Source of the DNA: a virus
Taxonomy: Duplodnaviria > Caudoviricetes
IMG/VR virus record: IMGVR_UViG_3300032373_000035
Coordinates: 1 to 43,052 of that record
Reading direction: 5' to 3' (one strand)
Length of the DNA stretch: 43,052 nt
How positions within the stretch are numbered: the first letter of the stretch is position 1; each line of letters opens with the position of its first letter. The translations under genes were made by a program, and so were the position numbers. Positions 3,242 through 43,052 of the stretch are shown one piece after another. The notes under the pieces were generated by a model. The model did not search any database, was not told the DNA's origin, and was given only the letters and a program-made list of their open reading frames with translations.

Positions 3242-3266
3242 ACAACAAGTAGACAAAGGACTAGAC

Positions 3267-15570: not shown

Positions 15571-15826
15571 CTCTGTGCGGTAGGGAGTTCATGACTCCCA
15601 TGTCAAAGCCCGCATCCTTGCCGGTGACCAGCGTGGACGCCTCGCGGTAGTCGAACTTCTGCGTCTTGATGAAGTCCAGGACGAGCTTCATGGTCTCATC
15701 GCTAGGGTCATCCTCGTTCAACCGCAGCTTCAGTTCCTGCACGAAGGCATCGAACAGAGCCAGCATGGATGCCTGCTGCTTGGGGACGGTGGGGTTATCC
15801 CCCATCTCTTTCTTCAGCGCCTGCAT
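15563..15826 (-). CDS. terS: Terminase small subunit (T7 gp18-like)
   Basis: Short helical protein (LFDAFVQELKLRL..VLDFIK..LP) coupled to terL; ATG 15826 (or 15805). Confidence 0.65.
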   Translation of the reverse strand: MQALKKEMGDNPTVPKQQASMLALFDAFVQELKLRLNEDDPSDETMKLVLDFIKTQKFDYREASTLVTGKDAGFDMGVMNSLPHRVE

Positions 15827-15827
15827 C

Positions 15828-16271: not shown

Positions 16272-16274
16272 GTC

Positions 16275-27032: not shown

Positions 27033-27595
27033 TACCGGCGATAGAGCTTGGTGATCTTGTGCATGTAGCGGCTGCGGCCCACGTTGTGCCTGTTGCTCCG
27101 GTAGTCCTGGCTCTTGACCATAGCGCGTGCCTGGTCCCTGGCCTGTGCCACCGTAGCAGAGCTACCAGTGTTCCCCCGGAGGCTCTGGTGAAGCTGCAGG
27201 GCAGCCTCGCGGGCAACGTACTCTTGCCAGGCTGTGGGCGTGTCCTCGAAGTCGATCAGGTAGGTCAGGTACGCGGAGAGCGAGGAGCCCCACTCGTCCG
27301 TATCGTTGACCATGTCGTAGAGGACGCCTCCACGGACAGCCACGATGTACCTGTCGATGGTGGGTTGAACGGACAGGACCGACGACGAGATGAGGATGTT
27401 GTCGTTTACGTCAGGGGAGAGGGTCTTCTCTCCGGTCTGGTTGAACCACCAGCCCTTTTCCTGTTCCGTGCGGTCGATGTCCTCCACAAGAGCCTTCGCT
27501 CGCGCAACGACAGGAGAATCAGGCGTGTCCACTGAAGCAGCTTGCTCCAGATTCACAGAGGTAAGGACTACGTTGACTGCGCTGAGTAGAGTCAT
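27032..27595 (-). CDS. Tail tubular protein A / adaptor (gp11-like)
   Basis: LSAVNVVL, QEKGWWFN, RGGVLYD, FEDTP..EYV; follows capsid gene. Confidence 0.88.
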   Translation of the reverse strand: MTLLSAVNVVLTSVNLEQAASVDTPDSPVVARAKALVEDIDRTEQEKGWWFNQTGEKTLSPDVNDNILISSSVLSVQPTIDRYIVAVRGGVLYDMVNDTDEWGSSLSAYLTYLIDFEDTPTAWQEYVAREAALQLHQSLRGNTGSSATVAQARDQARAMVKSQDYRSNRHNVGRSRYMHKITKLYRR

Positions 27596-27613
27596 GTGGG
27601 TGTGGTGGAGAAG

Positions 27614-27648
27614 GAGAGGCCCCCCGGGGTTTCCCCAGGGAGCCCCTC
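27614..27648 (-). terminator. Long hairpin after capsid gene (T-phi position)
   Basis: Minus strand GAGGGGCTCCCTGGGG-AAA-CCCCGGGGGGCCTCTC with G-U pairs only on this strand; weak pyrimidine tail. Confidence 0.65.
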
Positions 27649-27655
27649 AGGGTTC

Positions 27656-28702
27656 CTACGGGCTCGTCAGGTCGGGTTGCGAGGCAGCCGAGTTGATCTC
27701 GACAGCAGCTTCCGGACGGGTGACGTTGGTACCCTTCATGACTTTCGACACGAGGATATCACCCTGGTACTCGATGCTGTACTCACGCTCGATGCTCATG
27801 CCACGGAGCCATGCCGAAGAGATGGCATCGCGGTGGAACATGGTCGTGAGGTAGCCAGCGCGGGTATCCGAACCGATGTTGGAGGCGGTGAACTCGCCCA
27901 GGTAGTCGTTGCCACCCGTGATGCCAGAGCCGTAGCTCGCGGTCACGAAGTCAGCGGTCGGGACGTTGTTGCTAACCAGGACGGTCGCACCAGCCATTCG
28001 CGTGACGTTACCTTCCGTGATCACAGCGGTTCCGCCGTAGTCTCGGTTGATGATGTCGCGGAATCGCATGATGTACCAGTAGTCGCCGGGGAGCAGCGGC
28101 AGGTACCGCTCACTCTTCGGGACATCCTTGGCGTCCATGATAGCCGCAGCGGCCTCGAACGACTCGTAGAGGCTCTCAGCCGAGCCCGCCGTGAACTGCA
28201 CATAGCCACCGAAACCGAGCGAACCCAGGTCGGTGTTGCAGATCGACGGAGCGGTAGTCGAGTTCGACCGGGCAGCACGGGCAGACATGACGAAAGCAAG
28301 CTGGTCGTACTGGACGGCCATGCCTTCACCAAGCTGCTTCGCGTACTCGGAACGAACCTCGTACTCGTTCATGTCGTCCTCGGACTCGTCCAGGAAGGTC
28401 GAGTTGACCATCTTGCGGTCGATCTGAACGGGGCGCTTCACCGAAGCAATCGCGTTCAGGTAACCGTCGTCGATGATCGACTCGCCCGGAACGTGCCAGG
28501 TCGGGACGGAACGACCAGTCGCCGGGAAGCTCGTGGACTTACCGTGCGGAATGGTCTTGTTTCGGATGAGGGAGTTGACTTGCGTAGAACGGTCATACGC
28601 AGCCATCACCTCACCCGCGAAAAGCTCCAGGTTCAGGGCTCGACTGTCACCAGACGAGTTGACCTGACCCGGGCGTGAGAAAATGTCGCTCGGAAGGGGC
28701 AT
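27656..28702 (-). CDS. Major capsid protein (T7 gp10-like)
   Basis: RALNLELFAGEV, TIPHGKSTSFPATG, YEVRSEYAKQLGE, VSNNVP, RPEAAVEI. Confidence 0.95.
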   Translation of the reverse strand: MPLPSDIFSRPGQVNSSGDSRALNLELFAGEVMAAYDRSTQVNSLIRNKTIPHGKSTSFPATGRSVPTWHVPGESIIDDGYLNAIASVKRPVQIDRKMVNSTFLDESEDDMNEYEVRSEYAKQLGEGMAVQYDQLAFVMSARAARSNSTTAPSICNTDLGSLGFGGYVQFTAGSAESLYESFEAAAAIMDAKDVPKSERYLPLLPGDYWYIMRFRDIINRDYGGTAVITEGNVTRMAGATVLVSNNVPTADFVTASYGSGITGGNDYLGEFTASNIGSDTRAGYLTTMFHRDAISSAWLRGMSIEREYSIEYQGDILVSKVMKGTNVTRPEAAVEINSAASQPDLTSP

Positions 28703-28779
28703 TTTTCAGAAAGGGGTTTGGGTTTCTCGGAAAAGAATGTTTGGCGGGTGATGGTGCGGTATCCGGATCGTGCCGGGCG

Positions 28780-29121
28780 CTACGGAAGTCTTGCGAGTTC
28801 GCCAAGAATGACTCGCTCCCACTCCTCGGGGGTGTACATGGTGGCCGCTCCAGGCGGCAGGGGGTCCAGGAGGTCTCCAGTCCAGTGCTGTCCACTGGCA
28901 ATCTCAAGAGCGAACCAAGTTCCCTCGTTGACATCCAGGGGGAAAGTCACAGTGAAACCCTGGGGGAGATACGTCTGGACATCGAGGCTCGCCGCCCCTA
29001 CTGCAACGACCCACTGGTCGGATGCCTTGATGTGCCCACGGAGTTCCCCGTCGATCTGGGTGAAAGTTCCAGCTTGACAGGAGACCAGCAGGGAGAGCAG
29101 TAGGGAGGCGACGAACTTCAT
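28780..29121 (-). CDS. Putative lipoprotein (113 aa)
   Basis: MKFVASLLLSLLVS-C lipobox; ATG 29121 lies 4 nt after the scaffold stop. Confidence 0.65.
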   Translation of the reverse strand: MKFVASLLLSLLVSCQAGTFTQIDGELRGHIKASDQWVVAVGAASLDVQTYLPQGFTVTFPLDVNEGTWFALEIASGQHWTGDLLDPLPPGAATMYTPEEWERVILGELARLP

Positions 29122-29125
29122 GTGA

Positions 29126-29851
29126 CTAGTTGCGGAAGAAGGAGGATCGGGAGAGCTTCTCTTCGACTTCTCGCCGGTAGGAAGCATCCGTTTCGTACAG
29201 GACAGCGCCGGAAGCGTCTCTCTTCTTCATCGCGGAGATCATCTCCGAGCGAGAAAGAAAGCCGGTCGTCTGGTTACTCAGCGAGGTGTTGGTGATCGGG
29301 GATGCCGGGTCTGTTCCGACAGCGGAGACATAGGCGCTCTTGATGCTTTCCAGCGCAATCTCCCAAGCAGCAACATCACCGCGAGCAAGAGCATCGTTCG
29401 CCACCTGTGCCTTGTCCTGAGCGTTCACCCCGGCCCACTGCGTCATCGCAGCATACGCCTCTTCCCCACCAACGATCTGCTTCCCCTTCGAGAGCGTCTG
29501 ATCAGCCAGGGCCTTGACGGCGTTCAGGTGAGTCTGCACGATCTCCTCGGGGAATCCCATCTGGGTCAGTTGGCCGATACTCTCAGCTGACAACTCACCC
29601 TTCTCCGCATACTCTTGGTAGAAAGCGTTGAGATCCGTTTGCGGAGCATCAGGAGCAGCAGGAGCTTCTCCCCCGCCAGCAGTGGGGGTAGTCCCCGGGG
29701 CCTCAGGTTTCTCTTCTCGCGGTTCTCCAAGCTTGGACTCCAGAGACTTGTACGCCTCCTCCAGCTTCTCCACGCTGTCGAACTTGCCAGCGTAGGTGAC
29801 TGCTTCGGTCTCCCCTTCGATGCCCGTGGGGACTTGCGGTTCGGTTTCCAT
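29126..29851 (-). CDS. Capsid scaffolding protein (gp9-like)
   Basis: AGKFDSVEKLEEAYKSLESKLG, VGGEEAYAAMTQWA, YETDASYRREVEEKLSRS. Confidence 0.9.
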   Translation of the reverse strand: METEPQVPTGIEGETEAVTYAGKFDSVEKLEEAYKSLESKLGEPREEKPEAPGTTPTAGGGEAPAAPDAPQTDLNAFYQEYAEKGELSAESIGQLTQMGFPEEIVQTHLNAVKALADQTLSKGKQIVGGEEAYAAMTQWAGVNAQDKAQVANDALARGDVAAWEIALESIKSAYVSAVGTDPASPITNTSLSNQTTGFLSRSEMISAMKKRDASGAVLYETDASYRREVEEKLSRSSFFRN

Positions 29852-29853
29852 GT

Positions 29854-30279
29854 CTAGTTACTCAGCTGCTCCATGATCGCGGCGGCGTTCGCGGCCCGCT
29901 GTCCTTGGCGCACCTTCTGCAGAGCTGCTCGCTCCGCTGCACCGGCTTCCCAGACAGCTGCGTCGATGTCGTCCCGTTCCTTCGGGGATCGTCCAGTGTT
30001 GATGTAGTGCGTACCACACCAGATGGCCCCGGGGTGCTTTGCTTCAACCTCGGGGTACCTCTTGGACCCGGTAACGCCGACGACCTGAGCCGTGCAGTTC
30101 TGCACCAGCGCAGCCAGCCGCATCTTCGACGGAGACTCCCCACCAGCACGCTCTTGGCGGCTCATGGGAATCGAGTTCGCGGTCTGCGGGGCAGGGGCCT
30201 CGGGGGCCGCTTGGGGCTCCTCAGACGGGCGCGGAGGAAGCGTGACTTCTTTACTGACTTTCTTGTTCTCGCTGGGCAT
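29854..30279 (-). CDS. Hypothetical protein between portal and scaffold
   Basis: 141 aa, overlaps the portal stop and ends 2 nt before the scaffold ATG. Confidence 0.6.
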   Translation of the reverse strand: MPSENKKVSKEVTLPPRPSEEPQAAPEAPAPQTANSIPMSRQERAGGESPSKMRLAALVQNCTAQVVGVTGSKRYPEVEAKHPGAIWCGTHYINTGRSPKERDDIDAAVWEAGAAERAALQKVRQGQRAANAAAIMEQLSN

Positions 30280-31750
30280 TGAGTTCGTCCTGAATCAAGG
30301 GAAGACCTTGCTGGGCAACGGCGGCTTGTTGCTGCGCCTGGAGTCCCTGCTGGTATTCTTCTAGGGTTTTCACGAAACTACCAGTCTCAACTCCAGAGAC
30401 CTTTCCGACCTCTAGCAAGATGTTGTGATAGTTGATCATCAACTCCAGGTGCTGCGGGGGGATAGACCCCTGCGCCATGCTGTTGAAAATCTGGAGAGCT
30501 TCCATTTCAGTGGAGCGCCCAAGACCTTCGATCCCGGTGATGAGTTGTAGTTCTACCACATTCTCGGGTAGAGCCGCCAGAACTCCAGTTTTCTGGAGGA
30601 AGTTCTCGGTGAGGGTCACGACTGGACCCTGGATGTCTTCCGCCATCTGACCGAAAGCTCCACCCAGGGCAACGTCGAGTTCTCTAGCGAGATAGGAGAT
30701 TTCTGTAGCGGTGACCCGCTCCCCCGATCTCTGAATGGTGGATCCCATGAAGAAGGCTTCCCGAAGCTCTTCCCGGGTTTCCCGGAGGAGACCCGCAGCT
30801 GTCTGCAGATCACCGAACTTGTCCAGCTTGGTGGTCCCGATGTCCTCCTCTACCCCGGTGATGCAGGCACCATTGTCTGCCATCTCGAAGTCTTGGATGT
30901 TCGTGACCCCCGCAGGGTTGAACAGGAAGACGACCCTGGCAGCGATGGCGGCGATGTCGAGGAGAGCCTCGGAGAGCCCCTCAGCAGACGCCAGATCCCC
31001 CACGATCTTGTCGATGAAGGAGCGCCCGTAGTCTTCCCCGGAGTGGTGCTCCCACCGCAGAGGGCGGAAGGGGACGAGGTGCTCGGGGTACGTTGCCTCA
31101 GTTCCAGGGACCAGCTTCTCGTCAGCTTCCTGCCAAGAGTCGAACATCTTGGGTCCGGTTCTCCGGAAGCAAGTGTAAATCTCCGTGGTCTCCTTATCAG
31201 GCGTCCGATACTCGGGCTCCAGCATGACACTGGCAACCTCTTCCCTGACGATGCTCTTGAGGATGTTGTCGGCGCTGTCCCGGGAGACAACGTAGTTCCT
31301 GAGAGGGACGAAGCGGAATCGAGCGGACTTCGGGACTTGCCACAGGGCTCCGTTCCCGCCGATGATCAGATTTCGCAGCAGTTCCGCAATACGGGGGCGG
31401 AACCAGGGCTGCTCCAGGGTGCGCCAGACGACCCTCGCTCTGTCCTGAAGCTGCTGGTCTACAGCCGGTTTCAGCCCCTTGCTCTGGGACACCTCGCTCT
31501 CGCCCTCGGCTGTGAGCCTGTGCTGGAACCACTGGACCCCCGTGGGGAACAGAGTGGTGAGCAGCTTGGAGGTGAGGTTCTCTACCCCCCGGGACCCCAC
31601 CGACTGATAGGGGTCGTTGAAGTTGGAGGAGGCGTTGTGCCCGTCTTGCGGGAACACAATGGGCTGGGTGAGCAGAGAGGCACGCTGTGCCCGGTCCATG
31701 AAGTGCTCACGGGCACCCAGCATGTGCGTGTACTCTTTCTTGAGGCTCAT
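30251..31750 (-). CDS. Portal / head-tail connector (gp8-like)
   Basis: PYQSVGSRGVENLTSKL, GEDYGRS, RSGERVTATEI, ITGIEGLGR. Confidence 0.95.
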   Translation of the reverse strand: MSLKKEYTHMLGAREHFMDRAQRASLLTQPIVFPQDGHNASSNFNDPYQSVGSRGVENLTSKLLTTLFPTGVQWFQHRLTAEGESEVSQSKGLKPAVDQQLQDRARVVWRTLEQPWFRPRIAELLRNLIIGGNGALWQVPKSARFRFVPLRNYVVSRDSADNILKSIVREEVASVMLEPEYRTPDKETTEIYTCFRRTGPKMFDSWQEADEKLVPGTEATYPEHLVPFRPLRWEHHSGEDYGRSFIDKIVGDLASAEGLSEALLDIAAIAARVVFLFNPAGVTNIQDFEMADNGACITGVEEDIGTTKLDKFGDLQTAAGLLRETREELREAFFMGSTIQRSGERVTATEISYLARELDVALGGAFGQMAEDIQGPVVTLTENFLQKTGVLAALPENVVELQLITGIEGLGRSTEMEALQIFNSMAQGSIPPQHLELMINYHNILLEVGKVSGVETGSFVKTLEEYQQGLQAQQQAAVAQQGLPLIQDELNAQREQESQ

Positions 31751-31921
31751 CTACCTGGCGAGGGGGATCGTGAGGGAACTAAGGGCAGCCTGCTGCAGCT
31801 GTCCCTCTAGCGTGGTAGGACGGGCACCCGAATTGGCCTGGAATGCCAGGGCACCCTCTTCCGGCGAGGGAAGGGGCGGCGGGGGCGGTGTGGGTTGTTT
31901 CGGAGCGCCGGGGCTACACAT
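31751..31921 (-). CDS. Small Pro-rich virion protein, gp6.7/7.3-like (56 aa, not in ORF track)
   Basis: MCSPGAPKQPTPPPPPLPS...SSLTIPLAR; stop abuts the portal ATG. Confidence 0.7.
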   Translation of the reverse strand: MCSPGAPKQPTPPPPPLPSPEEGALAFQANSGARPTTLEGQLQQAALSSLTIPLAR

Positions 31922-32144
31922 CTTCTCGTTGGGTTTCGTACATGATTCGCAGTTTCCGGATTAGAGACACGACCGCAGCCCGCTGCAGGAAGTCCTCTCT
32001 GGTAGTATCCGGGGAAGGGCACTTGTCAGGGTAGGTCCGTTCGAGCCATTCAAGAAGATTCAAGGAGATTTCCGGTTGATGGTCTCTTGAAGGCTCGGAA
32101 GCTGATACCCGCCCACGAAGTGCTTGTGATCTTGCTTTCCTCAT
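31914..32144 (-). CDS. Small conserved podophage protein at the gp6.5 position
   Basis: PEISLNLLEWLERTYPDKCP..AAVVSLIRKL; ATG 32144 avoids overlap with the + strand gene. Confidence 0.65.
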   Translation of the reverse strand: MRKARSQALRGRVSASEPSRDHQPEISLNLLEWLERTYPDKCPSPDTTREDFLQRAAVVSLIRKLRIMYETQREDV

Positions 32145-32178
32145 TATGCTACCATAAGAGAAACCGACCACGAATCTG

Positions 32179-32316
32179 ATGAAAAAACTGAACAAAGTTC
32201 TCTCGGTCCTGCCGAGTGTCCTCAAGCTGGTCCCTACAGATTGGCCCTCTCTGCTCCGCTTTTCGGTCTTCCTGGCTGTGATTCTCGGGGCTTCCTACTT
32301 CCTGAAGTTCCTCTAG
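32179..32316 (+). CDS. Small membrane protein, possible holin (45 aa, not in ORF track)
   Basis: MKKLNKVLSVLPSVLKLVPTDWPSLLRFSVFLAVILGASYFLKFL; ends 3 nt before the fibre ATG. Confidence 0.6.
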   Translation: MKKLNKVLSVLPSVLKLVPTDWPSLLRFSVFLAVILGASYFLKFL

Positions 32317-32319: not shown

Positions 32320-34941
32320 ATGAATTCTTTCTCTCTCTACACCGTGAGCGGGGGCCAGACCCTGTTCAACATTGGGTTTGAGTACCTCCGAGCAGCCTAC
32401 CTACGGGTCTCCATCAACGATGTCCTGACGAGCGACTGGGCTCTGGCTGGCAGTGGGACCCAGGTGGACATCAGCGCCGCAGGAGCCATAAATGGTGATG
32501 AGGTAAAGATTTACCGCGTTACCCCCGTGGCTGACGATGACCGCCTGGTTCAGTGGCTGGATGGTGCCTTCCTCAACCAAGAGAACCTGGACACCCACCA
32601 GCTGCAGCTTCTGCACTCCATCCAGGAACTCATCGAGAACCCTGGGGAAACCGGGACGATCTTCGGAATCCCCACTGGGGGCACGACCTCTCAAGTCCTG
32701 ACCAAGCTGTCGGACACGGACTACGACGCCGACTGGGTTGATGCCTCCGGGGGTGGCGGCGGTGCCGTGGATAGCGTCTTCGGGCGCACCGGGGCTGTGG
32801 TCGCTGCTACCTCTGACTATGACGCCTCCCAGGTTGACAACGATGCCTCGGGCTTCACTGCTACGGATGTGGCGGGTGCACTGGAAGAGCTTCTGACTCA
32901 GGCGGGTGTCTCTTCTGTCTTCGGGCGCACTGGAGATGTGGTCGCTACTGCAGCGGACTACGACGGAATGGAAGTCACTGTGGGTTCCTGGGCTGGCGGC
33001 TCTCACGACTACGTCACCGACGCCCTGAACTTCCTCTTCGCCAGCAAGGACGACGGAGATGTGATCGGCCCGGGGTCCTCGGGGACCCGGAACATCTGCA
33101 CCTTCGCGGACACCACGGGTAAGCTGATCCAGGACTCTGCTGTGGAGGTCACCGCACTGCGGGTCATCCAGAACATCCTGGCACTGAGCGTCACCAACAG
33201 TAGCTCTGCTACCCCGGTGCTCGCAGCCAACTCTGGTGGTGCCACTTTCGACATCCGCTGTGGTTCCGGTACCCCAGCTGCTGAAGGACTCGCCGGAACT
33301 CTGGGTGCCCTTTACGTCCAGTGCACACCCGCTGCCGAAGGAGCCCTCTGGATCTTCACCTCCTCTGGTTGGGTGGACCTGACCGCAGCTACCGGCTCTG
33401 GGGATGTCTCTGGTCCTGGCTCCGGTACCGACAACGCTATCGCCCGCTGGGATGGGACTGGTGGGGATACCCTTCAGGACTCCGGTATCACCATCGACGA
33501 TGATGAGAACATCGACGGGGTCAACACCATCTCTGGCACGCTGCAAGAGAGTGCTGTCTCCGGTGGTCGCACCTTCCTCGACCTCAACTTCACCGACCCC
33601 GCAGACGGCACCACCGCCCGCACTGCTCGACTCTACATCGGCACGGAAGACCCCAACCAGAACTTCGACCCCTCCGGTGCCGCGTCTGCTGGCTCTGTGG
33701 GTGGGGACATCTTCTGGAAGATCGACGAGGATGGTCTGGGGAGCAACGACACCTCAGCCCTCTACCTCTGCACCAGGGGAGATGACTGGAAGCGCCTCCT
33801 AGCTACCAATGTTGCCACCACCCCCGGGCACTACTACGCTGATCTCAAGAACAGCGATGACAACACGACCCAGCCTGACACCAATGAGGTGATGAGGATG
33901 GAGTCCACGGGGACCAACGGGGATACCTGCAGGGTCTACGTCGGCACCCAGGACCCTAACGGTGTTGTCACCGGCACGGACGGAGCCCTGTACATCCGCT
34001 GTGCTGGATCTGCCTCCGCTCTCTACGTCAACACTAGCTCCTCCTTCTCCACTACCTGGACAGAGCTTGGGGCAGCTACGGGTACTTTTGTTGACAGTGT
34101 CGCCACCAGTGCATCCCTCGGGGAAGTTGCGCTGTTCTCTGACGATGACACGATCACTAACCTTACCTACGTCAACCAGAAGCTGATCCACGAAGCCAGC
34201 AATGGTCAGGATGGTTTGGCCGCAGGCTACTTCAAGGCTGACAGCACCGCCGCCGATACTGTCCCTGTCCTGGATCTCCAGAATTCTGGGACGAACGGTG
34301 GTGACGCCGATGTCTATGTCGGGAACAGGGACCCTGACAGCAACGTCACGGGAACCCTGGGGGATCTCTACCTGAATGACACGGGGGGCACCCTCCATGT
34401 CAACAAGGGAGGGAATGACTGGTCAGAGGTGGTAGACAAGGAGAGCGTCCGGGTGAACCGGGCCTACGCTGCAATCACCCACGGTGCTGGTACCACAACG
34501 CTGAACAGCACCACGCTTACCAGGCTGGACTACGATGACACCACTGCCACCCTGGCGAACGGGTTCGTTGCCACGGAACTGGATGGTGCTACCACAGGGT
34601 TCGACGCTCTGACCTGGAGCCCGGCTGATGGCCGCACCGCCACCTTTAGTCTGGTGTACAAGATGACGATCAAGACTACCTCCTCTGCTGAGATGGAGGC
34701 GAGGATCATCCCCAACATCAACTCCGGTGGGACCACCCTCACCAACGCTATTCTCTACTGCACCACCCACTCCAGGAACAACTCCAGGCAGTCAGCTACT
34801 GCTGCTACGGTGATCACCCTGACTGATGGTGACACCCTGGAGTTCCCCGCCTCCCTGGCCTCTGGCTCCAGCAACAACGGTGTTGTGGACAACTATGGCT
34901 TCTCGGCTACCCTGATCGAGCTTTCCTCCGACAATGAGTAG
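32320..34941 (+). CDS. Tail fibre with T7 gp17-type N-terminal attachment domain
   Basis: FNIGFEYL..IYRVTP..LVQWLDGAFLNQENLD..QLLHSIQE; internal SVFGRTG, GDVxGPGS and YxGxxDP repeats. Confidence 0.9.
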   Translation: MNSFSLYTVSGGQTLFNIGFEYLRAAYLRVSINDVLTSDWALAGSGTQVDISAAGAINGDEVKIYRVTPVADDDRLVQWLDGAFLNQENLDTHQLQLLHSIQELIENPGETGTIFGIPTGGTTSQVLTKLSDTDYDADWVDASGGGGGAVDSVFGRTGAVVAATSDYDASQVDNDASGFTATDVAGALEELLTQAGVSSVFGRTGDVVATAADYDGMEVTVGSWAGGSHDYVTDALNFLFASKDDGDVIGPGSSGTRNICTFADTTGKLIQDSAVEVTALRVIQNILALSVTNSSSATPVLAANSGGATFDIRCGSGTPAAEGLAGTLGALYVQCTPAAEGALWIFTSSGWVDLTAATGSGDVSGPGSGTDNAIARWDGTGGDTLQDSGITIDDDENIDGVNTISGTLQESAVSGGRTFLDLNFTDPADGTTARTARLYIGTEDPNQNFDPSGAASAGSVGGDIFWKIDEDGLGSNDTSALYLCTRGDDWKRLLATNVATTPGHYYADLKNSDDNTTQPDTNEVMRMESTGTNGDTCRVYVGTQDPNGVVTGTDGALYIRCAGSASALYVNTSSSFSTTWTELGAATGTFVDSVATSASLGEVALFSDDDTITNLTYVNQKLIHEASNGQDGLAAGYFKADSTAADTVPVLDLQNSGTNGGDADVYVGNRDPDSNVTGTLGDLYLNDTGGTLHVNKGGNDWSEVVDKESVRVNRAYAAITHGAGTTTLNSTTLTRLDYDDTTATLANGFVATELDGATTGFDALTWSPADGRTATFSLVYKMTIKTTSSAEMEARIIPNINSGGTTLTNAILYCTTHSRNNSRQSATAATVITLTDGDTLEFPASLASGSSNNGVVDNYGFSATLIELSSDNE

Positions 34942-35100: not shown

Positions 35101-35417
35101 GGGGGGTTCTGTGGGGGTTCTGTGGGGATTCTGTGGTGCCACTTCTGGGACCCCGGGGAAAAATACTGCAGAAACCTGTTCACCCTAACGAAACCCTGCC
35201 GGGTGGCTGTTCCCCCCCGGTGCCCTGCGCGTTTCCCCGGGGAAAGCCCTGGGGAATTCCCTACTGTCTTCCCTGCTTCCTGACACTGTGTATCCCTGGG
35301 GAATTCCCTGGGGAAAGCCCTGGGGAAATCCCTACTGTCTTCTTCGGGGAGTACCCTGGGGATCCTACCTACTAGTAGGGAGCCTGACGCCGTGTTTCCC
35401 TGGGGAATTCCCTGGGG
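35101..35417. repeat. Short-repeat array, probable genome-terminus region
   Basis: 11-bp GGGG(G/A)TTCTGT x3; 12-bp CCCTGGGGAANN tandem units; 37-bp repeat 35235-35271/35306-35342; GGGAATTCCC palindromes. Confidence 0.7.
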
Positions 35418-35665
35418 ATTAGGGCTTTGTTAGGTGTCGGTGAGGCACCATAAGGGAACGTCTCCGAGAAAGCCGAGGGGGGGACCCTGGGGACTTCTTT
35501 GGGACACCTAAGTCCCTGCTACCAAAGGACTTACGACGATTGCAGGCAGGTTCTTTGGGGTACCGCGTTCGGTTCCTCGAAACGATCCGCTCAGTCATCC
35601 GCAGGGAGAGCTGCCGGGGGGATCCCCGGGACAGCCGACCCTGCAACCCACAACCAGAGACAGAC

Positions 35666-36052
35666 ATGACAGACAGCATTCAAGCGGACCCGCTCCAGCG
35701 TTCCTACGATCGCGACGGCCTCCAAGACATGTTCCACCGGGAACTGGCTCCTTGGGCCTTCGATCCGAAGGACTGGCCCACGGGGCCGCCGACACTCTCC
35801 CAAGCCATCGCGGCTCGGATGCTCCCTCCAGCAGACCTTCCGGGTCCCCGTTGGTCCCAGGGGCTTCTCGACCGATGGCGGGACGGTGACGAAGAGGAGG
35901 AAGCTCTCCTCAAGCTCGCGAACCGCATCCGGCAAGCGAGGGAAGACCGCTACGAACGCTGGCGGGGAATGGTCGAGAGAGTCTACTCCTGGGCTCCTGA
36001 GATTGGACCCTGCCCCAGCCGAGCTTCGATGCTCGCAATCTGCCGGGACTAA
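35666..36052 (+). CDS. First early gene, hypothetical (128 aa)
   Basis: ATG within the GAGACAGACATG leader motif. Confidence 0.7.
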   Translation: MTDSIQADPLQRSYDRDGLQDMFHRELAPWAFDPKDWPTGPPTLSQAIAARMLPPADLPGPRWSQGLLDRWRDGDEEEEALLKLANRIRQAREDRYERWRGMVERVYSWAPEIGPCPSRASMLAICRD

Positions 36053-36074
36053 CCCGGGGGGGCTTCGGCCCCTA

Positions 36075-36142
36075 CCCTAGACAGACCCTCCGCCTTGACG
36101 CGGCTCTAGGGCTCCCCACAATCGGTGGGGTCCAAGGGAGGG
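36075..36142 (+). ncRNA. HDV-like ribozyme candidate 1
   Basis: P1 CCCTAGA/TCTAGGG, P2 CCCTCC/GGGAGGG, P3 GCC/GGC, L3 TTGACGC, P4 CCCCAC/GTGGGG, J4/2 TCCAA. Confidence 0.8.
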
Positions 36143-36161
36143 ACTACAACCAGAGACAGAC

Positions 36162-36530
36162 ATGATGAGAAGCGCGCATACCGCACAACGGTCGAAGCGT
36201 AGGCTTATGCCAGCGTGGATCGCCGCTACCGCCGAGCAGCATCTCGTAGACGCAGCTAAGATGGGCATGCCCTACAGCTGTGCTTGCGGGGAGGCTTGGA
36301 CGGATGGTGAGGATCCGAAGACGGGGGAAACCCTGTCTGGACTCTCGAACGCGATCCAATGCGGATTCTGCAAGAACCAGCTTTCGCCCGAAGTGTACAA
36401 GCATCGCGCCGTGACGTTCACGGACGCGGACACTGGAATGGCCTACATCGTGTGGCAGCGGGGATGGAAAGCCGTCCAATGCGTTCGCCCGGATGTGGAC
36501 GAGTGGAAGAAAGCGAATCAAGAAAAGTGA
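36162..36530 (+). CDS. Early hypothetical protein with Cys pairs
   Basis: GAGACAGACATG leader; CAC and CGFC. Confidence 0.7.
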   Translation: MMRSAHTAQRSKRRLMPAWIAATAEQHLVDAAKMGMPYSCACGEAWTDGEDPKTGETLSGLSNAIQCGFCKNQLSPEVYKHRAVTFTDADTGMAYIVWQRGWKAVQCVRPDVDEWKKANQEK

Positions 36531-36582
36531 CAACCCATCGTTCGGTTCCCCGAAACGTCCCGCTTAGTAGGGGGACCGAGCA

Positions 36583-36644
36583 CCACTAGAACAGACTGGC
36601 CTTGACGCGGCCTAGTGGCTCCCGGCAACGGGTCTAACAGTCTG
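36583..36644 (+). ncRNA. HDV-like ribozyme candidate 2
   Basis: P1 CCACTAG/CTAGTGG, P2 CAGACTG/CAGTCTG, P3 GCC/GGC, L3 TTGACGC, P4 CCCG-GCAA-CGGG, J4/2 TCTAA. Confidence 0.85.
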
Positions 36645-36666
36645 ATAACTCCAACAAAGGACAGTG

Positions 36667-36888
36667 ATGGATAACAACGTGAACGAAGTGTGCGATGCCA
36701 TTCTTGAGCGCATCCACAAGGCGGGACGGCTCTCGGATGAACTTCGAGAAGAGGGCGGTAACGAACGCTCCGTCGAAGGCTTGGAGCGCATGGTCACCTA
36801 TCTGTGCGCTGTCGTCGTCGCCCTCCGGGTCGATGTGGACAACAAGCAAAGCGTGCTTGAGTACCTCGCGGATCTTCCGCGCCTCTAG
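36667..36888 (+). CDS. Early hypothetical protein
   Basis: AAAGGACAGTGATG leader. Confidence 0.7.
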   Translation: MDNNVNEVCDAILERIHKAGRLSDELREEGGNERSVEGLERMVTYLCAVVVALRVDVDNKQSVLEYLADLPRL

Positions 36889-36918
36889 ACCGAGACAGAC
36901 ATCCAACAAAGGACAGTG

Positions 36919-37236
36919 ATGGACAAGACAAGACAGCAGGATCTTCGCGCCCTGTGGCAAAGGTACTTCGACGGAGAACTCTTCCCGGAGACCTGCGAGG
37001 ACTGGATCGAGAGCCGTATCGGTGAACGGTCCTGGGCTTCGCTCGCCAACAACGGAGACACTTGCGCCGTCCCTGCGCTTCTCGGTGCGCCGCACGATAG
37101 CGTGCCGTTCAACACCGTGGAAGACCGGCTCGGTATGGCCTTCTGGTCTGCCGTGTCGGCGCAGAACAGGGGTGGAGCTAGGTACATCTTCGAGGCTCTG
37201 GGAGCGCTTGCACAAGAGCGGGGGGTGGCTCGATGA
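36919..37236 (+). CDS. Early hypothetical protein
   Basis: Same 22-bp leader as the previous gene. Confidence 0.7.
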   Translation: MDKTRQQDLRALWQRYFDGELFPETCEDWIESRIGERSWASLANNGDTCAVPALLGAPHDSVPFNTVEDRLGMAFWSAVSAQNRGGARYIFEALGALAQERGVAR

Positions 37237-37439
37237 AGCTCCACCCTAGCGTGACCCAAGAGCGGATCATGGAGCGAGCCATAGCAGGTATGTACGGGTT
37301 GGATAACCCTGGTATCTGTAGGGCTTGCGGCGAAGACCAGGAAGGCTGCGAGCCTGACGCAGAGCACTACACTTGCGAGTGCTGCGATGCGAACGAAGTG
37401 TTCGGTGCCGAACAACTCCTCATCATGTACGGCGGATGA
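37233..37439 (+). CDS. Small zinc-ribbon protein
   Basis: GICRACG..EPDAEHYTCECCDANEVFGAE; ATGA overlap. Confidence 0.75.
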   Translation: MKLHPSVTQERIMERAIAGMYGLDNPGICRACGEDQEGCEPDAEHYTCECCDANEVFGAEQLLIMYGG

Positions 37440-37504
37440 CGAAACAAACCATCTGTGAGATCGCCTTCATCGGTCTCCTCATCCTCTCAACCTTCCTCAT
37501 CTAA
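37436..37504 (+). CDS. 22-aa hydrophobic peptide (not in ORF track)
   Basis: MTKQTICEIAFIGLLILSTFLI; ATGA coupling, stop directly before the hairpin of ribozyme 3. Confidence 0.55.
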   Translation: MTKQTICEIAFIGLLILSTFLI

Positions 37505-37522
37505 CAGGGGCCTTCGGGCCTA

Positions 37523-37583
37523 CCCCTGGAATGACTCGGCCTTGACGCGGCCCAGGGGCTCCCATTGTGGGTCTAACGGAGTC
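37523..37583 (+). ncRNA. HDV-like ribozyme candidate 3
   Basis: P1 CCCCTGG/CCAGGGG, P2 GACTCG/CGGAGTC, P3 GCC/GGC, L3 TTGACGC, P4 CCCA-TTG-TGGG, J4/2 TCTAA. Confidence 0.8.
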
Positions 37584-37609
37584 GGACAGACATCCAGCAA
37601 AGGACAGAC

Positions 37610-37930
37610 ATGGACATCCAGAAAGCGGAACCTCGCACCGAGCCTTCCATCCGGACTCGGACTCGGACTCGGACTGTTGAGGTTGAGGAGGAAGTCGAGG
37701 TGACATCCGGGTTCGACCTGGAAGTTTCCCTCAGCCTCCAGGAAGCGGAGCACTTGCGGGCTCTCCTCAAGTGTTCAGACCTCCTGGACCCGTTGTTCTA
37801 CCGGGTTGAGCGTCTCCTTCATATCGCAACTGAAGCGGACCACACTCCCTTCAGTCGTGGGCAGATGGAGCGGGGTGGCACCCGCATCCCGGTCAACGGA
37901 CTCGAATTCAACGGCGGGAAGAAGTTCTAG
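37610..37930 (+). CDS. Early hypothetical protein (LxxxEAxxLxALL family)
   Basis: AAAGGACAGACATG leader; (CGGACT)4 microsatellite at 37652-37675. Confidence 0.7.
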   Translation: MDIQKAEPRTEPSIRTRTRTRTVEVEEEVEVTSGFDLEVSLSLQEAEHLRALLKCSDLLDPLFYRVERLLHIATEADHTPFSRGQMERGGTRIPVNGLEFNGGKKF

Positions 37931-37934
37931 AATC

Positions 37935-38189
37935 ATGAAAAGCAAATGCAAAGTCGAGGCTGTGAAGCTCGAACCCGTGTTCAAGGTGAGCATTGAGCTT
38001 ACCCTCGAAGACGCCCGGAACCTGCAAGCCCTGTGCTGGACGATTCCTGCGGATCGTCTGGGCGGTTCTGAGGTGCTGTGCGACCTGTACTACAAACTGT
38101 CTAGTGCAGTGAACGACTACCCTGGTGTCGCTAAGAACGTCGAAGTCAACGGCGAGGAAATCTCCTGCAACACCCTGACTTTCCGATAG
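37935..38189 (+). CDS. Early hypothetical protein (LxxxEAxxLxALL family)
   Basis: ELTLEDARNLQALCWTI..LYYKL..VNG..CNTLTFR, similar to 40778. Confidence 0.7.
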   Translation: MKSKCKVEAVKLEPVFKVSIELTLEDARNLQALCWTIPADRLGGSEVLCDLYYKLSSAVNDYPGVAKNVEVNGEEISCNTLTFR

Positions 38190-38198
38190 AGGACAGAC

Positions 38199-38657
38199 AT
38201 GAAGAACAAGAACCTGCGAAGAGACATCATCGCCAAACAACGGCGTATCACGATCCGGGACCTCCGGAAAACCCTCAGGCAAGCCAGGAAGGGACTACCC
38301 GAGGGTAGCTCTCACCTGAGCCCCGAGGACAAGGCGCTGTGGATAGCAGCTCTCCGGTCTGGTCAGTTCAGACAGGGGAAGTTTTGCCTCCAGCCCGCCA
38401 AGGATACCTACTGTTGCCTTGGTGTGCTGAACTGCCTAGTGCCTGAGGAAAAACAGGCAGACCCGGGGAACTCGTACCTGAGCTTCCTCCCGAAAGAAAT
38501 CCAGCGTCCCCTCGCTGGGGCTAATGACCTGATGCATGGGGCGGATGCCACAAATGGGTGGCTGCTGTACATCAACAAAGATCCTATCGGAGAGGCCACC
38601 CCTCAGATCGCACCCACCTTTCACCAACTCGCAAGAGTCATCGAGGAGGAGTTGTAA
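38199..38657 (+). CDS. WxxALRSG...CCLGVL family protein
   Basis: LWIAALRSGQFRQG..YCCLGVL..AND..TFHQLARVIE. Confidence 0.8.
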   Translation: MKNKNLRRDIIAKQRRITIRDLRKTLRQARKGLPEGSSHLSPEDKALWIAALRSGQFRQGKFCLQPAKDTYCCLGVLNCLVPEEKQADPGNSYLSFLPKEIQRPLAGANDLMHGADATNGWLLYINKDPIGEATPQIAPTFHQLARVIEEEL

Positions 38658-38660
38658 GGC

Positions 38661-39083
38661 ATGAAGCTCGAACAGATCAAGAAGATCCGTGACGATTGGG
38701 TCGCGGCTCTCCGGAGCGGTGAGTACACACAAGGCAGAAAGACCTTGTACCGAGGGCCGGTTGACTCGGAGCACGAAGTTCCAGCAACTTACTGCTGCCT
38801 GGGTGTGCTCGCTGCCCAGAGTGGGGTGAGCGAGACGGAACTAGCGGACCTCCACTACCTGGACGACCTGAATATCCCCGGAGTAGCGGCGCTGGAGACA
38901 GCAGCGGATGCGCTGGGCCAGCTGATCCCACTAGATGCTCTGAAGCCAGACGGGACCATCATGACCGTGAACTGGGACCACAAGCTCTTCGCTGAGTTGA
39001 ACGACTCCCAGGGTAAGACGTTCGCTGATATCGCGGACATCCTGGAGAAGATGGACCTGTCCACGACTCCCCCGGAGAACTAG
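38661..39083 (+). CDS. WxxALRSG...CCLGVL family protein
   Basis: DWVAALRSGEYTQG..YCCLGVL..LND..TFADIADILE. Confidence 0.8.
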   Translation: MKLEQIKKIRDDWVAALRSGEYTQGRKTLYRGPVDSEHEVPATYCCLGVLAAQSGVSETELADLHYLDDLNIPGVAALETAADALGQLIPLDALKPDGTIMTVNWDHKLFAELNDSQGKTFADIADILEKMDLSTTPPEN

Positions 39084-39710
39084 ATGGGAGACTTCAGCAA
39101 GCCGAGCAAAATGCCCTGGCTGGCCTGGAGCACCCCAGCTAAGGACTGCAAGAACGGTAGCAAGCTCCACGATGTGCCTGGGAGCGTCTGTGAAGGGTGC
39201 TACGCACTCCGGGGCTTCTACAACATGGGAACCACCCGGCGAGCTATGGCGCGCAGACAGGCAGCCTGGAAGGAACCTGGGTGGACGGGTCGGATGATTG
39301 ACGACCTGTACGAAGAGTCCCAGAAGGTAGCGCCGAGCCTACGGTTCTTCCGATGGTTCGACTCAGGAGACATCCAGAGTGTCGCCCAGCTGCACAAGAT
39401 CGTGCTGATTGCGGAGGCACTGCCGGGGATCGGGTTCTACCTTCCGACCAAAGAGTACGGGATCGTGAGACAGTACTTGAAGCGGAATGAGGTCTATGGA
39501 TTCCCCAGGAACCTAGTGGTGCGTCCAAGCGCACCTATGGTAGATGAGGACATGGTACCCATCCCCGGACTCACCCGCTCCAAGGTCGAGAGCGACCCGG
39601 ACATGAACTCTCCGGATACCTGCCCGGCTAAGTTGCAGGCTAACAAGTGCTGGGATTGCAGGATGTGCTGGGATCCCGAGCAAGAACTCATCATCTACCC
39701 TCACCATTGA
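39084..39710 (+). CDS. GP88-like Cys-rich protein
   Basis: SKPSKMP..PAKDC..GSVCEGCYA, FRWFDSGD, LPTKE, CPA..CWDCRMCWD. Confidence 0.7.
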   Translation: MGDFSKPSKMPWLAWSTPAKDCKNGSKLHDVPGSVCEGCYALRGFYNMGTTRRAMARRQAAWKEPGWTGRMIDDLYEESQKVAPSLRFFRWFDSGDIQSVAQLHKIVLIAEALPGIGFYLPTKEYGIVRQYLKRNEVYGFPRNLVVRPSAPMVDEDMVPIPGLTRSKVESDPDMNSPDTCPAKLQANKCWDCRMCWDPEQELIIYPHH

Positions 39711-39775
39711 TCGTATTCGTCCTAGCAGGGCTCTTCGTCCTGTTCATCATCGTCAACCTGGACTACGAGTGGTAG
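39707..39775 (+). CDS. 22-aa hydrophobic peptide (TTG start, not in ORF track)
   Basis: MIVFVLAGLFVLFIIVNLDYEW; TTGA overlap with the previous stop. Confidence 0.45.
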   Translation: MIVFVLAGLFVLFIIVNLDYEW

Positions 39776-39797
39776 TCCCAAGCAAGAGACAGACAAA

Positions 39798-40766
39798 ATG
39801 CACGAAATTACTGAGACAGACAACGCGATGTACGTTGGGAAACCGGCATGGCACGGACTCGGAACCGTGGTGCCGGAAGCCAACGCTCGGACCTTCGTTC
39901 GGGATGCTGGTATCGGGGATGAGATCCTCGAACGGCCTCTCTACGATGGGGACATGAACCAGCTTGAAGGCTGGAAGGCCATCGTCCACTCCGGGAACGG
40001 TAACGTCCTGAACGTGGCGCGGAACACCTACAAGGTGATCCAACCTGCGTTCCTCCAGGAAGTCTGCAATGTCCTGGCGGATGACGGGGCGACCCCAGAG
40101 GCTGGGTTCAGTATGAACGGCGGGAAGGAACTCGCTGTCCTGCTCAACCTGAACGCCCCCCTGGTTCTTCCTTCGGGTGAGGATCATGTGGTGCCGTATG
40201 CCATCATGCATACCAGCCACGATGGGACGGCAGCCTTGACCCTCTCCGGTACTACCATCCGGGTGCAGTGTAAGAACATGCTGCGGATGGCCTTCGGATG
40301 CCGGAAGGCTGAGGGAGTCTATCGGATCACCCACAAGGGTAACGTGGAGTCCGAGCAGGAGACCCTGCTGGCTTCCCTGTCCGGTATCCGCCGACAGCTG
40401 GAGGAATTCGAGGCCCGTGCCTCCCTGCTCTGTGAGGTCAAGGTCTCCGAGCAGGACCGAAGGGATCTGATCGAGGGTGCCTACAGGTACATCAACGATC
40501 TGGAGGAACTCCCGCAAGGGGGAGACAGCAAGGGTGAGAAGTCCAGGCTGACCCGGTGGAAGAACTTCCAAGCGGAGTCCACGCTGGTCTACCACGGACC
40601 CACCTGTGACAACATCCGGGGTACTGCCTGGGGTGTCATGAACAGCATGACGGAGGTGTTGGAGAAGTCCAACTCGAAGGACCGTAGCGCCTCCCGAGTC
40701 AACGGCACCATCTCCCGGAAGCGGGAGGATGTGGCTACCTACATCACCGAGACCATCCTGAGCTAG
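39798..40766 (+). CDS. DUF932/DUF945-family phage-plasmid protein
   Basis: MHEI..PAWHGLG, YKVIQ, EAGFSMNGGK, TSHDGT, IRVQCKNML, ITHKG, GTAWGVMNSMTE. Confidence 0.85.
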   Translation: MHEITETDNAMYVGKPAWHGLGTVVPEANARTFVRDAGIGDEILERPLYDGDMNQLEGWKAIVHSGNGNVLNVARNTYKVIQPAFLQEVCNVLADDGATPEAGFSMNGGKELAVLLNLNAPLVLPSGEDHVVPYAIMHTSHDGTAALTLSGTTIRVQCKNMLRMAFGCRKAEGVYRITHKGNVESEQETLLASLSGIRRQLEEFEARASLLCEVKVSEQDRRDLIEGAYRYINDLEELPQGGDSKGEKSRLTRWKNFQAESTLVYHGPTCDNIRGTAWGVMNSMTEVLEKSNSKDRSASRVNGTISRKREDVATYITETILS

Positions 40767-40777
40767 AGGAGACAGAC

Positions 40778-41062
40778 ATGGAAACCAAAGCCAGTCTTGA
40801 AGTTGTCAAGACCATGAAGGAAGAAGTTGTCACCACCGAGGTCTCCGAGACCTTCGTGGATGTGAGGCTGAAGCTCACCATCACGGAAGCATCGAAGATG
40901 CGGGCTCTCCTCTGGGGTATCAAACCCGAGGACTGTCCCGAACTGTATGAGATGTACTTCACTCTCGGAAACGTGCTCCGGGAGCACGATGAGGACTTCA
41001 AAGACTACGCAGTCTATGTGAACGGCGCATGGCTGGCGTGCAACCGACTCGAATTCAAGTGA
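40778..41062 (+). CDS. Early hypothetical protein (LxxxEAxxLxALL family)
   Basis: GAGGAGACAGACATG leader; KLTITEASKMRALLWGI..CNRLEFK. Confidence 0.75.
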   Translation: METKASLEVVKTMKEEVVTTEVSETFVDVRLKLTITEASKMRALLWGIKPEDCPELYEMYFTLGNVLREHDEDFKDYAVYVNGAWLACNRLEFK

Positions 41063-41082
41063 AACCCAACAGAAAAAGAGAC

Positions 41083-41358
41083 ATGATCTACGAACGATTC
41101 GCATTCGAGAAACCCGAACCCGAGCGGCAGGATGCTGTAATCAGCATCAAGTTGGACCCCGAGGCTGCCGATCAACTCGCAGTCTTCCTGGGGAACATCG
41201 GCGGGGACCACCACACCACCCTGCGGGGGTTCTTCGACCTGATGGCCCGTCAGCTGGACTCCCAGGGGTACACCTTCGGAAACGGGGCGAGTAAAGGGTA
41301 CCTCATGGGGAAACTGGCTCGCCTTACCAGCAACACCGTCGTATTCCAGAAACAGTAG
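41083..41358 (+). CDS. Early hypothetical protein
   Basis: AAAGAGACATG leader; IKLDPEAADQLAVFLG. Confidence 0.65.
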   Translation: MIYERFAFEKPEPERQDAVISIKLDPEAADQLAVFLGNIGGDHHTTLRGFFDLMARQLDSQGYTFGNGASKGYLMGKLARLTSNTVVFQKQ

Positions 41359-41360
41359 AC

Positions 41361-41612
41361 ATGATCGCATCAACCAACATCCACCACGTTCGCTCCCTTC
41401 GCATCTCCTTCGACAACTGCGGAACGTCAGCCTGGCTGAAGCTAGACGCCCGCACCGGGGAGGAGAACAGCTGTGACCACTTCTCCATCACCCTGTTCAA
41501 GCGGAAGGAGGAATCCTACCTGGATCTCATGCGGGGTCTAGTCAACCAGCTGGAGAGTGAAATCTCCAGGATCGGGACCGCGCGGACCCTCGCCAAAGCG
41601 TCGAGGGAATAG
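41361..41612 (+). CDS. Early hypothetical protein
   Basis: Tightly packed ORF after TAGACATG. Confidence 0.65.
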   Translation: MIASTNIHHVRSLRISFDNCGTSAWLKLDARTGEENSCDHFSITLFKRKEESYLDLMRGLVNQLESEISRIGTARTLAKASRE

Positions 41613-42076
41613 TGACGGACAAGAATAAGACACTGGCACCGGGGTCCTACTACCTGGGCTCCCTGTGGAAGTGCTACACCCGAGAGGGCATCTATCAGGA
41701 GGTCGCCGGAGTGATTGACCTGATGAGGGTAGCAGTGCCGACAACGCTGCTCTCCCTGGAGAATCTCATGATCCGCCAACGGTTGTGGGAGTACAACAGG
41801 AGGAACCGCTGCTCCCGAGAACTCCATGCGGTTCTCTTCCTGGTGTCAGCGGACACTCACGACAAGGACCTCTGCAAACAGGCAGCTGAGTCCTTCAACC
41901 AGAGTGGGGGGAGCATCATGGACCGCCTCATCTGGGGTCAGACCAGGAGCTACCCGGACATGCCGTTCACGGCTAAGGACTGCGAGCTAGTCTTCCCCGA
42001 GGAGTCCCTGCAGGAGTCCATCACGGCGAGCCTTGCGCTCTACGATGGAGACCCCACCGGAAACAAGGAAGGGTAA
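41612..42076 (+). CDS. Early hypothetical protein
   Basis: GTG overlapping the previous TAG, SD-like GAGGGA. Confidence 0.65.
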   Translation: MTDKNKTLAPGSYYLGSLWKCYTREGIYQEVAGVIDLMRVAVPTTLLSLENLMIRQRLWEYNRRNRCSRELHAVLFLVSADTHDKDLCKQAAESFNQSGGSIMDRLIWGQTRSYPDMPFTAKDCELVFPEESLQESITASLALYDGDPTGNKEG

Positions 42077-42257: not shown

Positions 42258-42608
42258 ATGATACACGATGATCCGGCCCCCTTTCGGGAGCTTCTTTGTA
42301 AAACTCCAGAGCCCGTCCTAAGTGCTGCTCCCTGCACTACTTGCAACGTGGTACCCCCAGAGAAACAGGGACCGTATCCGAAGAATGTCTGCCGTGTCTG
42401 CCACGAAGGACGAGGAGCAGAGAGGGCTAACGGTATCGCCGCAGCCATCAGGGTCATGGCCTTCACCAGCATTCAGGAACAACTAGATCATGCATCCGAC
42501 GAACAAGAACCTGCTCCCTGTCTTGGTGGACACCTTGGCAGAGAGGTTGAAGGACTACTGCCTCCGGGTGAGACAGGGACCCAAGACCACGAGAAATCTG
42601 CTGACTGA
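42258..42608 (+). CDS. Possible zinc-finger protein overlapping the RNAP start
   Basis: CTTC..CRVC; overlaps RNAP by 119 nt in another frame. Confidence 0.4.
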   Translation: MIHDDPAPFRELLCKTPEPVLSAAPCTTCNVVPPEKQGPYPKNVCRVCHEGRGAERANGIAAAIRVMAFTSIQEQLDHASDEQEPAPCLGGHLGREVEGLLPPGETGTQDHEKSAD

Positions 42609-43052
42609 CCATGTCTCTCACTCCTACCACGGTGCTGCAACTGTGGTCTGGGGGGTGCTTCTCAGTCACCTGGGTAAACCAAGATCCCACGCAGTCAACA
42701 AGATTGGGACATCCCTGAATGATGAGGGCATGGCCCGGTGGGTACAACGGAAGTACCCCTGGAAGTACCGCCAACTCCAAGCGGTATACACTTCCGGGGT
42801 GTTCCGTGGAATCCTCCGGAACTTCCCCGATGCCCCTAGCCTGACCCTCAAGGAGCGGGCTACCCTTGGCCTGGTGTGCTACGAGCTTGCACTCCTGGGT
42901 GGGGGGATCACGGAGAAGAAGATCAAGAAGGGCAAGAGGTGGGTCCGACACACCTTCGCCAGCCCTGGTCTTGAACAGTTCATCAGCGAGGCCCCCCCGG
43001 GTACCCCAGTAGCTTCCCCTGAGCCGCTCTCTGCCGTCCCCTGTGGAGATGT
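42490..43052 (+). CDS. T7-type RNA polymerase, N-terminal part (continues at window start)
   Basis: Hand translation MHPTNKNLLPVLVDTLAERLKDY..AVNKIGTSLNDE..LKERATLGLVCYELAL is open to the end and in frame with 3..1520; resembles T7 LLPKMIARINDW / IGRAIEDE. Confidence 0.85.
   Translation, partial: MHPTNKNLLPVLVDTLAERLKDYCLRVRQGPKTTRNLLTDHVSHSYHGAATVVWGVLLSHLGKPRSHAVNKIGTSLNDEGMARWVQRKYPWKYRQLQAVYTSGVFRGILRNFPDAPSLTLKERATLGLVCYELALLGGGITEKKIKKGKRWVRHTFASPGLEQFISEAPPGTPVASPEPLSAVPCGD

Follow-up and report, generated by a model that had tools for sequence, protein, structure and literature searches.

Three HDV-like ribozyme variants between genes of a T7-like phage and their possible role in punctuating early mRNA

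Three short intergenic elements in a T7-like phage genome, here termed E1, E2 and E3, have the double-pseudoknot fold of HDV ribozymes, and covariation across about 100 relatives, together with the activity published for the nearest variants described, strongly supports their identity as HDV-type ribozymes. That all three are active ribozymes is in our judgment very probable. On balance we also favor the view that they cleave themselves and so split a presumed early polycistron into four separately protected units; given activity, the processing and stabilization of mRNA is, from the layout of the surrounding sequence, their probable role. The window analyzed is the whole virus record IMGVR_UViG_3300032373_000035, which comprises 43,052 bases and has a 127-nt terminal repeat.

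The + strand of the window carries genes for a T7-like RNA polymerase, ssDNA-binding protein, primase/helicase, DNA polymerase and exonuclease, and the - strand carries T7-like terminase, internal virion, tail, capsid and head-tail genes. Relative to cultured T7-like phages the genome is remote: its DNA polymerase shares no more than 32% identity with theirs, and it has an inverted structural module, which occupies 13819-32225 on the - strand in the orientation opposite to the replication genes and is followed by a long tail-fibre-like gene on the + strand (32320-34941). A query with the portal protein found no close phage relatives, one with DUF932 returned four distant loci (25-34% identity), none with a ribozyme copy, and blastn of E2 against cultured phages gave no match. 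Upstream of the RNA polymerase gene is a run of small + strand ORFs (35666-42076), mostly without family hits, which we infer from T7 gene order alone to be the early region. The RNA polymerase frame itself runs across the terminal join (42487-42925 and 1-1520) and has about 652 codons, which is short for a T7-type enzyme (883 in T7). Three paralogous small proteins (3234-3662, 38199-38657 and 38661-39083) match phrog_18067. The elements and their neighbors are listed in Table 1.

Table 1. Coordinates of the three elements and of adjacent hairpins and ORFs; ribozyme assignments and cut sites are predictions.
Feature	Position	Strand	Remarks
ORF, 128 aa	35666..36052	+	first of presumed early region, upstream of E1; no family hit
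GC hairpin, cUUCGg loop	36058..36073	+	just past stop of ORF 35666-36052; from sequence and fold
Ribozyme E1	36075..36142	+	catalytic C 36132; P4 6 bp; predicted cut A36074/C36075
ORF, 122 aa	36162..36530	+	start 19 nt past E1; GAGACAGAC leader; no family hit
12-bp hairpin before E2	36540..36581	+	5' arm overlaps 30-nt repeat (copy at 35566-35595)
Ribozyme E2	36583..36644	+	catalytic C 36634; P4 with GCAA loop; predicted cut A36582/C36583
Three small ORFs between E2 and E3	36667-36888, 36916/9-37236, 37233-37439	+	no family hits
GC hairpin, cUUCGg loop, before E3	37508..37521	+	from sequence and fold
Ribozyme E3	37523..37583/4	+	catalytic C 37573; predicted cut A37522/C37523
ORF, 106 aa	37610..37930	+	start 25 nt past E3; opens ORF run continuing to 42076

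Each element can be folded into a nested double pseudoknot (P1-P2-P3-P1.1-P4) with the strands in the correct order, a P1 of 7 bp and a P3 of 3 bp. The helices P1 and P2 are CCCTAGA/TCTAGGG and CCCTCC/GGAGGG in E1, CCACTAG/CTAGTGG and CAGACTG/CAGTCTG in E2, and CCCCTGG/CCAGGGG and GACTC/GAGTC in E3, and common to all three are P3 (GCC/GGC), L3 (TTGACGC), J1/4 (CT) and J4/2 (TCYAA). The original prediction had described three intergenic elements with this core and these helices, and they are present as described on the + strand; the HDV strand order, the U20 and G25 equivalents in L3 (UUGACGC), and the catalytic C that opens J4/2 and is followed by NAA were likewise found in every element. Its description was accurate for the core and the helices and overlooked two features: the cleavage-site pair (HDV genomic numbering) is C1-G37, and P1.1 consists of G22-C38 and U21·U39. 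In addition, a hairpin upstream of each element stops one base, an A, short of the predicted cut, so that the base at position -1 is A in E1, E2 and E3 alike.

The elements resemble one another in the core alone (66-74% over 35 nt), and their P1, P2 and P4 helices differ by compensated changes. This bears on the proposal that they are copies of a small repeat, mobile or selfish, that multiplied within the early region and does nothing for the phage, a proposal which the presence of several copies per genome would suit and to which we give hardly any weight, since similarity is limited to the core, the helices are kept by compensation, and every copy in the window lies between genes and on the coding strand. 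For the elements taken by themselves, minimum-energy folds calculated by a method that excludes pseudoknots are no better than those of shuffled sequences (z = -1.0, -1.6 and +0.85 for E1, E2 and E3), and in the pseudoknot-free fold of E2 the P1' strand is drawn into a local hairpin.

When position 1 was left free, an HDV descriptor of the kind called for by the original prediction gave three hits on the + strand and none on the - strand of the whole window, compared to none on both strands of 40 first-order Markov shuffles of it. When 61 sequences of other contigs were used to build a covariance model, it found E1, E2 and E3 only (E = 2.7e-8, 3e-8 and 2.3e-7, the E-values being rough), and its next best match in the window had an E-value of 1.8. 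The MAFFT alignment (A1) was poor 3' of J1/4, and the covariance model and the pair counts were therefore restricted to P1, P3 and P1.1; the P1 pair counts from this alignment are circular, as members were chosen for pairing. Neither a relaxed descriptor nor the covariance model with its filters off found a fourth copy in the window, and the structured leader at 35560-35670 was rejected as an HDV-like element because its fold is not HDV-like. Rfam 15 gave no meaningful match in the window (E<=5) or within 36000-37650 (E<=10).

To collect relatives of the elements, viral and metagenome contigs were scanned by pattern; this yielded at least 413 loci, and the family counts are lower bounds. In these loci the descriptor gave at least 160 hits and at least 102 unique folded sequences, including E1-E3. 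Among the matches listed, 101 of the 102 unique sequences have C1-G37 and the remaining one is canonical, and within the 101 the P1.1 pair is G22-C38 in 91 and U22-A38 in 10. The C1-G37 variant of the HDV ribozyme is widespread, with at least 101 unique sequences and covariation of G-C and U-A at P1.1. P4 is absent in about half of the unique sequences among the matches listed, and an A at -1 is found in 85/102 of them (same matches). In the U22-A38 subtype P4 is mostly AGUA/GAA, which we take to be E-loop-like. The constancy of U20 and G25 in the family is built in, as both positions are fixed in the descriptor.

Because G37 and the catalytic C were set in several of the scan patterns, separate checks were carried out in which these positions were free. 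Where the catalytic position could take any base, 9 of 28 cores fold, and C is found in all nine; with position 37 free, 5 of 119 cores fold and all five have G, which is present in 41 of the 119 cores overall, and none of 20 core matches with a base other than G at position 37 folds. When positions 22 and 38 were each allowed two bases, they were paired in 95 of 98 distinct cores and in 59/59 of those that fold (among the matches listed), where independence of the two positions would, by our own arithmetic, give about 26 mismatches among the 98. P1 and P2 are formed by 54 of 102 distinct metagenome cores that had been found by sequence only (among the matches listed), compared to 0-3 after their upstream flanks were swapped. 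In prokaryote genomes the fold is present in only 6 of 121 core matches, and the variant family therefore looks mainly viral.

These patterns of covariation indicate that the fold of the family is under selection as RNA, and this argues against the elements being purely promoters. In that reading the TTGACG of the core serves as a sigma-70 -35 box, and the main function of the elements is that of promoters for the host polymerase; E1 does contain TTGACG-16-CACAAT with 9/12 matches; a sequence that is both promoter and HDV ribozyme has been reported for L1Tc, in a source available to us in part. One such site, however, compares to 0.9 expected, there is none at E2 or E3, the covariation of P1 and P2 is left unexplained, and the paired change of G22 to U and C38 to A breaks the -35 box and keeps the pair. 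A promoter as the main role of E1-E3 is thus very improbable and was rejected on the site count and the G22/C38 to U22/A38 covariation.

The canonical cleavage-site pair of HDV ribozymes is G1·U37, and according to a 2021 review G1 is invariant. Canonical HDV ribozymes, theta ribozymes and RF02682 combine G1, in a G·U or G-C pair, with one or more C-G pairs in P1.1 (CC in L3 and GG in J1/4), and neither feature is found in E1-E3; C1-G37 and a P1.1 of G-C and U·U rule them out as theta or canonical HDV ribozymes. The Rfam families RF02682 (HDV-F-prausnitzii) and RF00094 (HDV ribozyme) share with them the double-pseudoknot order and the catalytic C, and differ in having G1 and a C-G P1.1, and neither model matches E1-E3 at E<=5 or E<=10. 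Theta ribozymes, as far as they are covered by the available part of Kienbeck 2024 (PMC10879173), have the same scaffold as the variant family (P3 RCC/GGY, an L3 ending in ACGY, a CYAA junction), are likewise found in Caudoviricetes, and even share P2 sequences (ATAGCAA/TTGCTAT) with some variant relatives. The theta rows examined in that work have G1·U37, an L3 of U-CC-ACGU, GG at J1/4 and no P4, and are located mostly at the 3' ends of tRNAs, whereas E1-E3 differ at these positions, have a P4 and lie in a window in which, as the original prediction held, there is no tRNA (ARAGORN finds neither tRNA nor tmRNA). The string GCCTTGACG does not occur in the nine text supplement files of the same paper. 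Since Rfam 15 does not detect the variant family and the theta data files searched do not contain it, current counts of phage ribozymes are likely to be too low.

Much closer to E1-E3 are two of the "HDV variants" that Weinberg et al. (2015) reported; one of the two comes from a phage, and their structures are described in Luo 2026 (PMC13635239), a source again available in part. Both have a P1.1 of U:A plus U:U or C:U and cleave at 4-9/min, their C-to-U mutants being inactive; the Caenorhabditis (C. briggsae) variant has C1, A23, G25 and C18:G28, the cleavage rate given for the described C1 variant is 9/min, and an HDV variant from Ackermannviridae was crystallized. E1-E3 resemble these variants, as portrayed there, in having C1, A23, G25, C18:G28 in P3 and a catalytic C in J4/2, in the non-Watson-Crick nature of the second P1.1 pair, and in that both groups include a phage example. 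They differ from them in that the Watson-Crick pair of P1.1 is G-C and not U:A, the base at -1 is A where the variants have U, and the P4 hairpins are plain. The U22-A38 subtype of our family (10 sequences among the matches listed), compared by description, fits the account in the available part of Luo 2026. Because this subtype fits the published landmarks and covaries with the G22-C38 form present in the window, E1-E3 are likely to be members of the Weinberg-2015 HDV-variant clade, matched by described landmarks rather than full sequences. The RNA type of E1-E3 is therefore likely to be already known, and the G-C P1.1 subtype, which is the majority form, may be undescribed, the published variants having been compared by description. 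The novelty claimed by the original prediction was overstated in this respect, as phage HDV ribozymes away from tRNAs have been published, both as 526 non-tRNA theta hits (Kienbeck 2024, PMC10879173) and as the Ackermannviridae variant (PMC13635239), according to what is available of these papers.

The same comparisons bear on whether E1-E3 cut. They could instead have an HDV-like fold that cleaves very slowly or not at all and serve as leader structures, roadblocks or protein-binding sites. Both C1-G37 and A at -1 are suboptimal for canonical HDV ribozymes (from a review and an abstract), the preference of the genomic HDV ribozyme at -1 being U > C > A > G in a source seen in part, and no value for a C1-G37 double mutant was found in the available part of Roberts 2023. 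Yet the active C. briggsae variant shows that C1 is no bar to activity, the catalytic C is constant in folded hits in which that position was free, and, as described below, the variant occurs in the same gene arrays as canonical HDV, twister and pistol ribozymes, all of which makes a fold that does not cut improbable.

The surroundings of the relatives are informative about function. A ribosome site and an ORF no more than 60 nt downstream (mostly 18-29 nt) are found for 42 of 98 members among the matches listed, compared to 3 of 98 in an opposite-strand control, and a simple ribosome-site regular expression is failed by 56/98 of the members listed, including E1. In the window a GACAG-type leader precedes the start codons downstream of E1, E2 and E3, which, in line with the original prediction that the elements end shortly before start codons, lie 19, 22 and 25 nt past them; the second of these opens the first ORF after E2 (36667) and has a AAGGACAG leader. 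Upstream, 52 of 98 members among the matches listed have a folded 40-mer (z<-1.5 relative to 20 mononucleotide shuffles, with no control region), and 35 of these 52 folds end 0-1 nt before C1. The order of hairpin, cut site, ribozyme and ribosome site thus recurs in other phages, and this recurrent layout makes the punctuation of mRNA their likely role. Only 2 of 100 members among the matches listed adjoin a tRNA 3' end, from which it follows that the family has more than one use. In one tRNA cluster (L322, G005) C1-type variants are located directly 3' of tRNA-Leu and tRNA-Val, a theta-like use by a kind of ribozyme that is not among the theta rows examined in the available part of Kienbeck 2024.

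Several loci contain arrays of the variant. In one genome (G001, L418 4900-14420) there are seven C1 variants within 10 kb, the copies examined each precede a gene start, and the genes are small ORFs, MoxR AAA and vWA; one canonical G1-type element (RF02682, 37.9 bits, below the gathering score) occupies the same type of slot. Two further loci, L551 and L545, have five and four copies, all of which lie between or overlap called ORFs, and pistol, twister-P1 or RAGATH-5 RNAs occur beside the variant motif in 4 of 12 chosen loci. That the variant interchanges with unrelated ribozymes in such arrays suggests that cutting itself is the selected trait. At a separate locus (L298, 4546-5160) a canonical G1 minimal HDV element begins at the 3' end of a tmRNA-like gene and has a hatchet ribozyme and a C1 variant near it.

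According to the mechanism that we propose, the nascent early transcript would cut itself at 36074/5, 36582/3 and 37522/3, giving four units that comprise ORF 35666, ORF 36162, ORFs 36667-37439, and ORF 37610 onward. As in its ribozyme class, the C75 equivalent would act as general acid together with Mg2+ in a cut 5' of C1, which would leave a 2',3'-cyclic phosphate on the upstream piece and a 5'-OH on the downstream piece. The layout suggests that the stable hairpin one base before the cut would shield the upstream piece against 3' exonucleases, and that the 5'-OH of the downstream piece, held in the folded ribozyme 19-25 nt before the start codon, would give protection from 5'-end-dependent decay; the cut would also free the downstream ribosome site from upstream structure. 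The original prediction spoke of capped units, which should read as units with a 5'-OH end buried in a pseudoknot. Of its wider reading, an HDV-ribozyme system for processing mRNA, the ribozyme identity is supported by the covariation across about 100 relatives, and the processing role is the best explanation offered by the layout.

The main rival to protective processing is cleavage-triggered decay, in which E1-E3 are active and their cleavage mainly makes the neighboring messages unstable or silent, so that early genes would carry their own shut-off, much as with glmS. That self-cleavage of glmS triggers decay is established (according to a review), early genes require turning off, and the cut parts gene units from the 5' triphosphate end. 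On the other hand, the hairpin ends at the cut in E1-E3 and in the 35 of 98 relatives noted above (among the matches listed), which looks like 3' protection, the downstream message keeps an intact pseudoknot at its 5' end, and 5'-OH RNA is a poor substrate of RNase E (review). We consider a shut-off unlikely, and protective processing remains our preferred reading.

In T7 the host RNase III, which acts on dsRNA stems, cuts the early mRNA between genes. E1-E3 would do this job without a host enzyme. As in T7, a T7-like early polycistron would be cut between genes to give structured ends; unlike the T7 process, which depends on a host protein, the cut would be catalyzed by RNA and the ends would be 5'-OH and cyclic phosphate. 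With three copies at the boundaries of genes, each accompanied by a hairpin and a ribosome site, this complete T7-like genome offers a direct parallel to the RNase III sites of T7. A search whose coverage mostly excluded subscription journals found no publication in which ribozymes process the early operon of a T7-like phage. Ribozymes near phage genes have been proposed in a review to process polycistrons, an idea described there as unproven and their role as an open question, and in this respect too the novelty of the original prediction was overstated. No role has been assigned to cellular HDV ribozymes, according to the available part of Luo 2026 (PMC13635239). More tentatively, and as a possibility rather than a probability, a T7-like lineage may have given up the processing of its early operon by host RNase III in favor of an array of self-cleaving HDV ribozymes with a flipped core, and the cassette of hairpin, ribozyme and ribosome site may be a general, nuclease-independent device by which phages punctuate mRNA. 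If true, such a device would give a function to many orphan phage ribozymes. One catalytic C-to-U change per element provides a simple reporter test, in the clean and testable setting of a T7-like early operon, and short ribozymes that tolerate C1 could serve as transcript insulators.

Other sequence features were observed in and near the early region. A 30-nt repeat (87% identical) occurs at 35566-35595, ahead of the first early ORF, and at 36539-36568, just before E2; it has an imperfect inverted core and could be an operator or promoter, and a repressor-like HTH gene is present at 5651-5926. A cluster of GGGGAAWKCCC-type palindromic repeats at 35220-35430, between the last gene of the structural side and the early region, is possibly related to an origin, to packaging or to the terminal repeat. 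Between 35659 and 40780, seven early starts have an unusual GACAG(AC/TG)ATG leader instead of the classic GGAGG, which is a possible clue to the host.
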